A DNA stretch of 64,000 bases from assembly GCA_035276685.1 (NCBI GenBank), contig DATELK010000065.1, positions 10,387 to 74,386 of the forward strand. The letters are read 5' to 3'. The position numbers were made by a program, and so were the translations under genes. The stretch comes from Pyrinomonadaceae bacterium. Lineage in GTDB: Bacteria > Acidobacteriota > Blastocatellia > Pyrinomonadales > Pyrinomonadaceae. Below the pieces are notes generated by a model that saw only the letters and a list, made by a program, of their open reading frames with translations, had not been told where the DNA came from and made no database searches. Shown in pieces: positions 24,153-26,101 of this stretch (positions are counted from its first letter, which is position 1; each line of letters starts with the position of its first letter).

Positions 24153-26101
24153 CAAGCGTCCTCAACCTTAGCGGCCTTCTCTCTGCGCGCCTTGAAATAT
24201 GCGACCGTCCGCCCAAGCCCTTCGGGCAGAGCTATGGTCGGCTCCCACCCAAGCAACTCCTTGGCGCGTGTGATGTCGGGCTTACGCTGCTGCGGGTCGT
24301 CCTGCGGCAGCGGCTGGTGCGTTATCTTCAGCTCGCCCCCGGTAGCCTTCGCCACCTCGTCGGCCAGCTCCCTTATAGTAAACTCTCCCGGGTTCCCAAG
24401 GTTAACGGGGAAGTGCACGCCTTCGGTGTTCATCAACCGTATCAAGCCCTCTATCAAATCATCCACGTAGCAGAAGGAGCGCGTCTGCTCGCCTCGTCCG
24501 TAGATGGTCAGCTCCTCGCCCCTCAGAGCCTGCGTGATGAAGTTTGAGACCACGCGCCCGTCATTCTCAAGCATGCGCGGCCCGTAGGTGTTGAAGATGC
24601 GCGCAATCCTTATGTCCACCCCGTTCTGCCTGTGATAGTCCATCATCAAAGTCTCTGCCAGCCGCTTCCCTTCGTCGTAACAGTTGCCGCAAAAGGCGGC
24701 CCGCCCATTTCGCCGCACACAGATGACGTGGTTTTTCACGTTGACGCAATAGACCTTGCCTGCGTAAGGGACACGCTCAGGGCTGACAAGATTAGCCTCG
24801 ACGGGTGGACGAATGTTGACGCGATAAAGGTCGCGGCCAACTGCATGAGAGACAACTGTGGCAGCGTAACCGCAGCGCATCGCCAGCTCCTGCACGTCGT
24901 CTGCCAGCCGCTTTGATTTGGAATAGTAGGCGTAACAATTCCCACGGCGCGAGCCGTCACCAAGTATAAGCGCCTTGAAAAGAATCAGCGATTGTCTTCT
25001 GGATAATTGAAGAAACTCGCGCGGTATAAACTTATCGCCGGATTTGCCGAGCGGCCCCAGAATGGCTGCCAGTTGCTTACTACAGATGCGGAACTGGTGG
25101 TCGTCCGACTGGAAGAACTTGAAGCCCAGGCGGCTCAGGCAGGCTGCAATTTTCGCGCGCCCCGCCGGATTTTCCTGAGCAATCAAAACGTTGTAATCGG
25201 CTACGTCGTAATCCCTGCCGCCCACCACACGGCTGCGGCGTCGAACATGCACGCATCCTTCCGAGATGTAGTAGCCTAGGAATTCCAGCCAATCATCCAT
25301 AGGGATACGTTCGACACTTACTTTGGAGTTGACGGGCGGGTCGCCGAGCATGAAATATTCCTGCTCTTCGCCCGCGAACTCGCCGCCCGTCATGACGCGC
25401 CACGCGGGCCAGTGCCTTTCTTCGTCCGCGCGAAGGAACCTGAGCTTCCCCGTCTTGCTTCGCACGTACATGGAATGATTCGGCGTCACACAAAAGTCAT
25501 ACTTGGCGTTCGCAAATCTCAAGAGATGGCCGACGTATGGTTGAACGATATACTCGTCTGGAACGTGATACTCAATCGCGCCCTGCGGATTAAGCGTCGC
25601 CACTCGCACGCCCGGACGCAGCTCGGGAAACGGCACCCAACCGTGCTCCGTCAGAATCTCGGTCTCATCGTCGTAACATGACCTAATCCCGATGCAGTTG
25701 ACGTGGCCCCAGTAGTCCTCTGTTTGCGGGTGTACTTCGGGGTCGCCGTAGACTTCGGAGGTGGAGGCTTGGAGGATGCGTGCGCGCACGCGCTTGGCAA
25801 GACCGAGCATGTTGATGGTGCCCATGACGTTGGTCTTGACGGTCTTGACGGGGTTGTACTGGTAATGAATGGGAGAGGCCGGACACGCGAGGTTGTAGAT
25901 TTGGTCTACTTCCAGAAGCACTGGCTCTATCACGTCATGGCGCAGCAGCTCGAAGTGGTGATTGTCGAGCAGGTGTATGATGTTCTCGCGCCTGCCCGTG
26001 AAGAAGTTGTCCAGACAGATTACGTCGTGGCCCGCTTCGAGCAGCCTCTCGCAAAGGTGCGAGCCGAGGAACCCGGCCCCGCCTGTGACGACTATTCTCA
26101 T
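24152..26101 (-). CDS. uxs: UDP-glucuronate decarboxylase (UDP-xylose synthase) interrupted by an in-frame intein
   Basis: The exteins read MRIVVTGGAGFLGSHL..DNFFTGRREN..STSEVYGDPEVHPQTEDYWGHVNCIGIRS | CYDEGKRLAETL..RIARIFNTYGPRM..DGRVVSNFITQAL, which is classic UXS. The spliced length is 317 aa. True start is ATG 26101, preceded by GGAAGAGGGG. The track start at 26209 would overlap the thioesterase gene. Confidence 0.9.
   Translation of the reverse strand: MRIVVTGGAGFLGSHLCERLLEAGHDVICLDNFFTGRRENIIHLLDNHHFELLRHDVIEPVLLEVDQIYNLACPASPIHYQYNPVKTVKTNVMGTINMLGLAKRVRARILQASTSEVYGDPEVHPQTEDYWGHVNCIGIRSCYDDETEILTEHGWVPFPELRPGVRVATLNPQGAIEYHVPDEYIVQPYVGHLLRFANAKYDFCVTPNHSMYVRSKTGKLRFLRADEERHWPAWRVMTGGEFAGEEQEYFMLGDPPVNSKVSVERIPMDDWLEFLGYYISEGCVHVRRRSRVVGGRDYDVADYNVLIAQENPAGRAKIAACLSRLGFKFFQSDDHQFRICSKQLAAILGPLGKSGDKFIPREFLQLSRRQSLILFKALILGDGSRRGNCYAYYSKSKRLADDVQELAMRCGYAATVVSHAVGRDLYRVNIRPPVEANLVSPERVPYAGKVYCVNVKNHVICVRRNGRAAFCGNCYDEGKRLAETLMMDYHRQNGVDIRIARIFNTYGPRMLENDGRVVSNFITQALRGEELTIYGRGEQTRSFCYVDDLIEGLIRLMNTEGVHFPVNLGNPGEFTIRELADEVAKATGGELKITHQPLPQDDPQQRKPDITRAKELLGWEPTIALPEGLGRTVAYFKARREKAAKVEDA
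24683..25678 (-). mobile_element. Intein (332 aa) with LAGLIDADG homing endonuclease domain
   Basis: Begins with Cys (CYDDETEILTEHGW, block A). Block B is VTPNH. The LAGLIDADG motifs are WLEFLGYYISEG and ALILGDGSRR, about 100 aa apart. It ends VYCVNVKNHVICVRRNGRAAFCGN and is followed by the +1 Cys of CYDEGK. Junction codons were checked on the DNA: TGT at 25678..25676, AAC at 24685..24683, TGT at 24682..24680. Confidence 0.85.

Follow-up and report, generated by a model that had tools for sequence, protein, structure and literature searches.

In the window, the whole 64-kb stretch of DNA analysed here, from a soil acidobacterium of the Pyrinomonadaceae, a 649-codon open reading frame encodes a precursor of UDP-xylose synthase (UXS, UDP-glucuronate decarboxylase) whose two host portions, the exteins, are separated by an in-frame insert (Table 1). 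The predicted protein is identical to NCBI entry HKS27241.1, from a Pyrinomonadaceae bacterium MAG. With the exteins spliced together, the composite sequence aligned to human UXS1 (hUXS1; 2b69/4gll) without a gap, at 441 bits and E 1.8e-131 against only 142 bits for UDP-glucose 4-epimerase as the next family, and full-length similarity to characterised UXS proteins includes the GxxGxxG, TSEVYG and YDEGK motifs. Judged from sequence, the host is a genuine UXS, an extended SDR, as had been proposed in an earlier annotation of the window made from its letters and open reading frames (the sequence-only reading). The gene is located within a polysaccharide-biosynthesis cluster. Neither a second UXS paralogue nor a second copy of the intein was found in the 64-kb window, the best other SDR being 36% identical, and no match was obtained when the window was scanned for tRNAs and Rfam families.

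Table 1. Features of the UXS precursor gene and its insert (window coordinates).
Feature	Position	Strand	Remarks
UXS (UDP-glucuronate decarboxylase) precursor CDS	24152..26101	-	649 aa + stop; start MRIVVTGG
N-extein, 141 aa	25679..26101	-	GxxGxxG NAD-binding motif and STSEVYG; end ...HVNCIGIRS
Intein, 332 aa (CYDDETEIL...AAFCGN)	24683..25678	-	missing from the syntenic intein-free allele L082
Block A nucleophile, Cys1 codon	25676..25678	-	invariant in 71/71 UXS alleles and in a 57-sequence family alignment
11-nt direct repeat TGTTACGACGA	25668..25678	-	first 11 nt of intein; twin at 24672..24682 = first 11 nt of C-extein
Block B TPNH, intein residues 65-68	25475..25486	-	T65 and H68 in 71/71 alleles
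LAGLIDADG homing-endonuclease domain, about intein residues 126-294	24797..25303	-	AF2 secondary structure, Foldseek I-DmoI, Pfam LAGLIDADG_3
First LAGLIDADG motif LEFLGYYISEG, intein 131-141	25256..25288	-	acidic E140 in 70/71 alleles, G141 in 71/71
Second LAGLIDADG motif LFKALILGDGS, intein 233-243	24950..24982	-	acidic D241 in 70/71 alleles
Block F KVYCVNVKNHVICV	24716..24757	-	C311 in 71/71 alleles, H317 in 70/71
Block G RRNGRAAFCGN	24683..24715	-	penultimate Gly331 in 71/71 alleles; terminal Asn332
+1 Cys codon (24680..24682) and host catalytic Tyr-x-x-x-Lys (YDEGK)	24665..24682	-	ungapped vs hUXS1 ACYDEGKR
C-extein, 176 aa + stop	24152..24682	-	first residue +1 Cys, then catalytic YDEGK (SDR YxxxK)

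An in-frame insert with intein hallmarks lies one residue before the UXS catalytic tyrosine

The insert comprises 996 bp (332 codons) between ...IGIRS and CYDEGKR, and corresponds to precursor residues 142-473 (CYDDETEILTEHGW...RNGRAAFCGN, followed by CYDEGKR). In the alignment to hUXS1 (2b69), the insertion point precedes the SDR catalytic Tyr by one residue, which bears out the proposed position immediately before the YxxxK motif. Intein-free alleles were found in relatives. One, in a syntenic Pyrinomonadaceae locus (L082/P0122; 96% protein identity, with about 85% nucleotide identity across some 9 kb), is without precisely these 996 bp and has an uninterrupted site (60 bp, GGGCACGTCAACTGCATAGGGGTGAGGTCA/TGTTACGACGAAGGCAAGCGGCTGGCGGAG, the slash marking the insertion point). 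The BLAST segments of this allele overlap by 11 nt at the insertion junction, and because of the direct repeat the junction can be placed in the DNA only to within 11 nt; since splicing chemistry needs Cys1 and the terminal Asn, the intein boundary is nevertheless fixed, at the place where the sequence-only reading had put it.

Of the residues by which inteins are recognised, the Cys/Ser nucleophile (here Cys1), the TxxH of block B (TPNH), the C-terminal Asn/Gln (Asn332) and the Cys/Ser/Thr at +1 (Cys) were all found at their expected positions. Residue conservation was counted over 71 UXS alleles occupied at the same site (see below). The +1 Cys is kept in all of them, as are C1, C330 and the block-F residue C311; these four invariant cysteines have block positions at the splice site or close to it. 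The terminal residue, 332, is Asn in 55 alleles and Gln in the other 16. At its fourth position block F has Cys311 in place of the Asp common among inteins, and it retains His317. A class-3 intein, a reading prompted by the block-F Cys, was rejected because Cys1 is invariant. In inteins, a His before the terminal Asn is common, although not obligatory. The sequence-only reading had singled out the Gly in its place; the residue is indeed Gly331, but it is no anomaly, since it is invariant among the UXS alleles and is kept in more than 100 members of the wider family across many hosts. The penultimate Gly and the block-F Cys may indicate a chemistry that differs in detail from that of textbook class-1 inteins.

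The insert is predicted to adopt a Hint fold with a two-motif LAGLIDADG endonuclease

The AF2 model of the insert (pLDDT 95.8, pTM 0.93) shows a compact Hint and endonuclease fold. Its best Foldseek matches were all full-size inteins (TliVMA, PhoVMA, PI-TkoII, PI-PfuI and PI-SceI), the top match being the TliVMA intein 7qsu (E 9e-17, TM 0.69), and the model also matched a hedgehog Hint domain. The solved inteins (TliVMA/PhoVMA, 7qsu, 7qss and 7qst; PI-TkoII, 2cw7; PI-PfuI, 1dq3; PI-SceI, 1vde) have the same layout of Hint plus pseudo-dimeric LAGLIDADG domain and were matched at E 9e-17 to 1e-10 with TM up to 0.69, but their sequence identity to the window intein is only 10–19%. They are also longer (chains of 361–537 aa), they reside in V-ATPase, PolB and RNR rather than in UXS, and His is the usual residue before the terminal Asn, where the window intein has Gly.

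Profile searches, which the sequence-only reading had suggested for both domains, gave a divided result. Pfam LAGLIDADG_3 scored 32.4 bits against a curated cut-off of 22.5 (intein residues 234–289), but Hint_2 gave only 18.5 bits over about 30 residues, below its cut-off of 28.4. NCBIfam models for intein-containing DnaB and GyrA matched weakly and were not taken as proof, and a sequence search against PDB chains found no match to the insert even at E 10. Because Hint_2 is sub-threshold and the PDB sequence search was empty, the Hint assignment rests on fold and conserved blocks, and it is in the structure comparison of the model that a Hint fold is recognised. The endonuclease core aligned with I-DmoI over 173 columns (Foldseek; target-normalised TM about 0.64), and the AF2 secondary structure agrees with the alpha-beta-beta-alpha-beta-beta-alpha pseudo-dimer of this match. 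Both LAGLIDADG motifs, which had been recognised in the letters alone, retain their acidic residues, E140 and D241. The conserved blocks, the two motifs and the fold match to solved inteins together support the original identification of a full-size LAGLIDADG intein.

The UXS site is occupied by an intein in many phyla

The proposal that UXS might be a new intein host and insertion site did not hold. When 185,579 species genomes were scanned, a homologous intein was detected at exactly this position of UXS in at least 70 others, from Cyanobacteria, Acidobacteria, Deltaproteobacteria, CPR bacteria and DPANN/methanogen archaea; the site was occupied in 70 of 80 genome loci retrieved, with the pattern ...R[SAG]/C...G[NQ]/CYDE[GAS]KR. 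One of them is Tery_2478 of Trichodesmium erythraeum IMS101 (ABG51687.1, UniRef100_Q111Y7), whose GenBank product is 'Protein splicing site' and which matches COG1372 (intein) and COG0451. We take its first intein to be the InBase entry 'Ter Ndse-1', the InBase names for this protein presumably being Ter Ndse-1 and Ter Ndse-2. This first intein occupies the same site of the same enzyme (...IGIRS/C...CG[NQ]/CYDEGKR), shares 68% aa identity with the window intein over the full length, and has in common with it the block B TPNH, the block F VYC...NH and the penultimate Gly. It differs in its length (336 aa against 332 aa), in its last residue (Gln rather than Asn) and in its second LAGLIDADG motif (IMGDN rather than ILGDG), and the Tery_2478 protein contains a second, unrelated intein at RIFN/TYGP that the window gene lacks. 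Other cyanobacterial and acidobacterial UXS-site alleles are 72–83% identical to the window intein. As judged from the shared site and these identities, the window intein belongs to a known UXS-site allele family and its insertion site is not new. Full-text searches of the open-access literature returned no paper naming a UXS or nucleotide-sugar-epimerase intein.

More than 100 sequences are homologous to the insert over its full length (E down to 1e-169). They are in-frame inserts in unrelated proteins, always bounded by C...GN/[CST]; hosts include ThyX, ThyA, dCMP deaminase, MCM, PolB and GTP cyclohydrolase I. Inserts at 26–28% identity and 100% coverage occur in the thymidylate synthase of Corynebacterium phage P1201 and in the nucleotidyltransferase gp3 of a cluster of Mycobacterium phages (Cali, LRRHood). 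Although distant in sequence, phage-borne, and located in other hosts at other insertion sites, they appear to belong to the same broad intein lineage. The plasmid collection that we searched contained two distant relatives only, and gave no evidence of plasmids as carriers of the UXS-site allele. An intein in UDP-glucose dehydrogenase, the enzyme that makes the UXS substrate, is cited in a review (PMC2874743); it likewise resides in a non-replicative enzyme of the sugar-nucleotide pathway, but in a different host protein and at a different site.

Signs of intein mobility and of purifying selection

The distribution of the insert is sporadic. The best 120 extein homologues listed (79–96% identity) were all 305–340 aa in length, and hence intein-free. 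The window intein is 81–83% identical to cyanobacterial alleles, against 72–74% (N-extein) and 66–69% (C-extein) for the exteins of the same genes; this excess of intein over extein identity indicates cross-phylum transfer between Cyanobacteria and Acidobacteria. The GC3 values are 0.66 for the intein and 0.78 for the extein. Another Pyrinomonadaceae locus (L070) has an extein 85% identical to that of the window and, at the same site, an intein only 44% identical. On these identities, the UXS site is contested by two or more lineages of intein within one bacterial family.

Since dS was saturated in almost every pair, we used dN and the qualitative relation of dN to dS, and give no dN/dS value. 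The dN of the intein was 0.11–0.22, far below dS, and was lower in the endonuclease domain (0.08–0.10) than in the splicing domain (0.17–0.19). As judged from dN, strong purifying selection acts on the endonuclease domain. The saturation of dS implies that the intein transfers were not recent, and the long-term persistence of the intein could have a cause other than an active homing cycle.

Discussion

Taken together, the sequence comparisons and the structural model make it very probable that the insert is a true intein of class-1 type, intact and full-length, composed of a Hint domain and a two-motif LAGLIDADG endonuclease and belonging to a widespread UXS-site allelic family; it is predicted to be active in both splicing and DNA cleavage. 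The 649-aa precursor would be translated first. Cys1 would then undergo an N–S acyl shift, presumably helped by Thr65 and His68 of block B, as their conservation suggests, and the +1 Cys would attack the resulting thioester (trans-thioesterification). Cyclisation of Asn332, next to a Gly and without the His, as always in this family, would free the 332-aa intein, and an S–N shift would rejoin ...IGIRS-CYDEGKR... into an active UXS of 317 aa. Intein-free uxs alleles would be cut site-specifically, by the released intein or by the precursor, around GGCCACGTCAACTGCATCGGGATTAGGTCA/TGTTACGACGAAGGGAAGCGG; on repair of the cut, the empty allele would acquire a copy of the intein, and the sporadic, cross-phylum distribution would be explained. 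This distribution and the purifying selection on the endonuclease domain lend such cleavage indirect support. Given that a single residue separates the insertion from the SDR catalytic Tyr that follows, UXS activity, and the supply of UDP-xylose from the window gene, should need splicing, and the lack of a second UXS in the window agrees with the dependence that the sequence-only reading had expected.

Whether splicing is also regulated is a separate matter. It is unlikely, though conceivable, that the intein is conditional, with splicing under the control of, for instance, the redox state, sensed by disulfides among Cys1, Cys+1, Cys311 and Cys330, so as to switch UDP-xylose production; such gating would add to the intein reading and not exclude it. 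Gated splicing is described for other inteins (PMC4513877, PMC6195587). The four cysteines near the splice site are invariant, strong purifying selection and persistence across phyla are evident, and a protein left unspliced at its catalytic centre should be inactive. However, splicing chemistry alone explains the conserved cysteines equally well, the same Cys pattern is seen where the family sits in unrelated hosts, and the closest relatives are intein-free in the same syntenic cluster, so that the host has no need of the intein. We consider it quite unlikely that the UXS intein has been retained as a redox- or metal-sensing switch (via Cys1, Cys311, Cys330 and Cys+1) that gates UDP-xylose for exopolysaccharide, and is not purely selfish. 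If true, this could explain why a metabolic enzyme with no part in replication has kept its intein, under strong purifying selection, in Cyanobacteria, Acidobacteria, Deltaproteobacteria, CPR bacteria and archaea.

Very little probability attaches to a splicing-dead or decaying intein, which would not be excised and would leave this uxs copy a pseudogene or its product inactive, any UDP-xylose then coming from elsewhere. Decay does occur in the family, one copy (P0021) lacking the N-terminal 159 intein residues, another (P0015) being frameshifted and some UXS-site alleles having lost a LAGLIDADG residue, and the window intein itself lacks the penultimate His and has a sub-threshold Pfam Hint score. 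Nevertheless, its ORF is intact across 649 codons, all splice-critical residues are present and family-invariant, a penultimate Gly is characteristic of the whole family, dN is much lower than dS, and the AF2 fold is compact and confident. That the insert is a permanent, non-excised accessory UXS domain, or an artefact of assembly or annotation, is scarcely credible: its presence in many UXS homologues, a circumstance that the sequence-only reading had set against its own claim, is countered by the sporadic distribution with intein-free best homologues, by homologous inserts in dozens of unrelated proteins that always have intein boundary residues, by a fold that is that of solved inteins and by a position that would split the SDR catalytic centre, and a chimera is ruled out because the same structure recurs in genomes assembled independently, among them the complete one of T. 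erythraeum.

The intein reading bears on the annotation of UXS genes. Like dozens of comparable proteins from MAGs, HKS27241.1 bears no label beyond "NAD-dependent epimerase/dehydratase" or "GDP-mannose 4,6-dehydratase"; these proteins are intein-interrupted UDP-xylose synthases, whose length and domain calls mislead automated annotation. The stretch of UXS that the endonuclease is predicted to target is very conserved, also in the human protein, and could interest engineers of LAGLIDADG nucleases. Most known inteins are found in replication or repair proteins. The UXS intein leaves the general picture of what inteins are unchanged, and represents a well-populated case of an intein in a sugar-nucleotide enzyme, located one residue from the catalytic Tyr.

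Structure of the interrupted gene

The 649-aa UDP-xylose synthase (UXS) precursor corresponds to NCBI HKS27241.1, encoded on an 80.7-kb MAG contig, and its database name is silent on an intein. When the 332-aa insert was taken out, the resulting 317-aa spliced extein aligned end to end with human UDP-xylose synthase 1 (2b69/4gll), with no gap at the junction (441 bits, E = 1.8e-131); the runner-up structural family, UDP-glucose 4-epimerase, scored just 142 bits. The Pfam Epimerase/GDP_Man_Dehyd domains were broken into two by the insert. These data bear out the coordinates and all of the motifs listed in the sequence-only reading, which had placed a LAGLIDADG intein immediately before the catalytic YxxxK of UXS.

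Features of the UXS locus (window coordinates)
Feature	Position	Strand	Description
UXS precursor ORF	26101..24152	-	649 aa, begins MRIVVTGGAGFLGSH
Intein	25678..24683 (residues 142-473)	-	Reads CYDDETEILTEHGW...VRRNGRAAFCGN, then CYDEGKRLAET
11-nt direct repeat	25668..25678 and 24672..24682		TGTTACGACGA; flanks the insertion
Co-directional gene run	19454..36027	-	Polysaccharide cluster beside acyl-activating enzymes, syntenic with L082: NRPS-like AMP-binding/PCP/thioesterase (942 aa), acyl-CoA-synthetase-like AMP-binding enzyme (607 aa), UXS with intein, 4HBT thioesterase, methyltransferase, Wzy-like protein (Wzy_C), TPR/CBM_4_9 protein, GT4 priming transferase with CoA_binding_3, two more SDR sugar-nucleotide enzymes (epimerase/dehydratases), GT1

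An AlphaFold2 model of the insert, based on a 57-sequence family alignment, had a pLDDT of 95.8 and a pTM of 0.93. Its top PDB matches were all full-size LAGLIDADG inteins (TliVMA, PhoVMA, PI-TkoII, PI-PfuI and PI-SceI; E from 9e-17 to 1e-10), the central domain resembled I-DmoI, and a hedgehog Hint domain was also among the matches. At the sequence level, LAGLIDADG_3 was detected within the insert over its curated Pfam cut-off, whereas Hint_2 reached 18.5 bits against a cut-off of 28.4 and a sequence search of the insert against the PDB gave no match; the assignment of the splicing domain therefore rests on the fold and the conserved blocks. Fold, blocks and insertion together agree with a full-size LAGLIDADG intein in UXS, as first read.

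The intein family and its known UXS members

A database search detected 245 homologues of the insert at E ≤ 0.001. The nearest ~25 were UXS proteins with the insert at the same position, and the remainder, 30–40% identical over 100% of its length, lay in-frame in unrelated proteins, including ThyX, ThyA, dCMP deaminase, MCM, family-B DNA polymerase, GTP cyclohydrolase I, PAPS reductase and M23 peptidases. Members start with C[YF][DS]xxTE[IV]LT and end with G-N, and the next residue is C, S or T. This host pattern indicates that the insert belongs to a mobile intein family. The wider family (CYDDxTEILT...GN; P0027–P0120, L072–L080) occupies dozens of unrelated host sites, LamG-domain proteins and a carbamoyltransferase among them; where members bear an organism label, which few do, it points to CPR or archaea, and several of the hosts act in nucleotide metabolism. 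One 36%-identical member (P0062, ENA contig, 554 aa) lies inside a different SDR sugar-nucleotide enzyme, at TTTGVYG/C...SGN/SPDFTIPEG (slashes, intein boundaries), a site corresponding to the STSEVYG motif and not the YxxxK motif.

The intein alignment was scanned against a single genome of each GTDB species, which yielded 134 confirmed relatives, the best 80 of which were kept. Of these, 70 were complete UXS alleles interrupted by the intein at exactly this position; one UXS allele ending at a contig edge (L074) was left out of this count, and the other kept loci were six MCM genes (L075–L080), two carbamoyltransferase-like proteins (L072, L073) and a partial locus (L058). The 70 alleles came from many filamentous cyanobacteria (Okeania, Coleofasciculus, Microcoleus, Planktothrix, Prochloron, Halothece and Trichodesmium), other bacteria (Pyrinomonadaceae, Blastocatellaceae, Deltaproteobacteria, CPR/Patescibacteria, Elusimicrobia and Omnitrophota) and archaea (Woesearchaeota, Aenigmatarchaeota and Methanosarcinales).

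On the Trichodesmium erythraeum IMS101 chromosome (L049; 5569..8820), a 1080-aa UXS homologue adjoining UDP-glucose 6-dehydrogenase contains two inteins. The first, 68% identical to the window intein, occupies the same site (...IGIRS/CFDSKTEILT...AAWCGQ/CYDEGKR); the second (RIFN/SLTGDQ...VFAHN/TYGPRM) lies where the window gene is uninterrupted. We take the two to be InBase Ter Ndse-1 and Ter Ndse-2. An exact-sequence look-up identified the protein as ABG51687.1 (Tery_2478, UniRef100_Q111Y7), named “Protein splicing site” in GenBank and “UDP-glucuronate decarboxylase” in UniRef, with COG1372 (intein/homing endonuclease) and COG0451; the UXS intein has thus been publicly recognised since that genome was deposited. 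No discussion of it was found in the open-access papers searched, so the site is little described in the literature, yet not new. The earlier suggestion of a new insertion site or host is therefore not supported, given Tery_2478 and the 70 alleles, and the window intein is a new, acidobacterial allele of a known, widespread UXS intein family.

Many cyanobacterial UXS genes encode 1070–1140 aa. The second intein, unrelated to the first, was read at RIFN/TYGP (S...HN/T) in L049 and in a Prochloron fragment (P0035), and is inferred from length in L005, L006, L008, L010, L013, L029, L032, L034, L039, L042, L043, L045, L047, L053, L060 and L071.

Intein-free alleles and transfer

When used as the query, the spliced extein retrieved UXS proteins by the thousand. 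The best 120 (79–96% identity), many labelled Pyrinomonadaceae, were all 305–340 aa long and hence intein-free. One of them, P0122, is encoded on a 717-kb JGI contig (L082), which shares with the window the gene order methyltransferase, 4HBT thioesterase, UXS, AMP-binding enzyme and NRPS-like enzyme. The two loci were ~85% identical in nucleotide sequence across ~9 kb, with one gap corresponding exactly to window 24683..25678, so that intein-free alleles do occur among relatives. The BLAST segments overlapped by the 11-nt repeat, because the intein starts with CYDD and the C-extein with CYDE, so the DNA alone leaves the boundary uncertain by 11 nt; the requirement for Cys at intein position 1 and Asn at the end selects the boundary originally proposed. 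The repeat stems from the resemblance of the CYDD start, which is family-conserved, to the host CYDE; it may be a coincidence, or microhomology that aided the original ectopic invasion of UXS.

The window intein was 81–83% identical to three cyanobacterial alleles (L004, L005, L007), compared with 72–74% for the N-extein and 66–69% for the C-extein. Conversely, a Pyrinomonadaceae MAG (L070; JACDEG010000003.1, 6001..6999) has an N-extein 85% identical to that of the window but, at the same UXS site, an archaeal/CPR-type intein (CFSADTEVLT...) only 44% identical, so this site has been invaded by two or more intein lineages within a single bacterial family. Against Pyrinomonadaceae alleles, extein dS was ~1 whereas intein dS was saturated. 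GC3 was 0.66 in the intein and 0.78 in the extein (overall GC, 0.565 and 0.589), a mild difference that fits an intein acquired from a foreign source. The cyanobacterial identities, L070, and the dS and GC3 contrasts suggest that the intein has moved separately from its host gene. At the nucleotide level these transfers are not recent.

Conserved residues and predicted splicing

The window intein was aligned with the 70 genomic UXS alleles (n = 71). Cys1, Thr65 and His68 (block B TPNH), block F Cys311, Cys330, Gly331 and the +1 Cys were present in 71/71, and block F His317 and the LAGLIDADG acidic residues E140 and D241 each in 70/71. The penultimate Gly, noted earlier in place of the usual His, is fixed family-wide, other hosts included, and does not mark this copy as defective. 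The last residue was Asn in 55/71 and Gln in 16/71; the latter form a cyanobacterial subclade (e.g. L005, L006, L018, L033, L035, L049; ...CGQ/CYDEGKR), in several of which the second LAGLIDADG motif is degenerate as well (GDN or GDA). In pairwise codon comparisons, dN was only 0.11–0.22 with dS saturated, and against other Pyrinomonadaceae alleles dN was lower in the endonuclease domain (0.08–0.10) than in the splicing domain (0.17–0.19); purifying selection acts on both. Elsewhere, a deltaproteobacterial-type UXS (P0021, 40.6-kb ENA contig) carries an intein without ~159 N-terminal residues (...NPIGPR/ADYNILIAQ...CGN/CYDEGKR), and P0015 is apparently frameshifted. Either intein decay, with loss of enzyme activity as its expected result, or faulty assembly may account for them.

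The insertion is precise and in-frame at the catalytic centre, the fold is that of a LAGLIDADG intein with invariant splice-site and endonuclease residues, and the distribution is patchy across phyla, with intein-free alleles in close relatives. Splicing would follow the standard class-1 route: an N-S shift at Cys1, attack by Cys+1, cyclisation of Asn332 and an S-N shift, restoring ...IGIRS-CYDEGKR..., so that only after splicing would the SDR Tyr/Lys catalytic pair lie in its native context. Cleavage of intein-free uxs alleles by the endonuclease would drive homing. A splicing-dead relic is unlikely, as the ORF is intact and the catalytic residues are invariant. That splicing serves as a conditional switch, for example a redox-gated one, seems quite improbable; intein-free relatives show that the intein is dispensable to the host. 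Intein-free alleles, the range of unrelated hosts in the family and the independent assemblies all contradict a non-excised domain or an artefact.

Genomic context

GC content along the 64-kb window was uniform (54–63%), and neither tRNA/tmRNA genes (ARAGORN) nor Rfam families at the gathering threshold were found in positions 1..64000. No second UXS was found in the window. Since the intein-containing gene is its sole UXS and sits in the polysaccharide cluster, UDP-xylose from this locus would depend on the predicted protein splicing.
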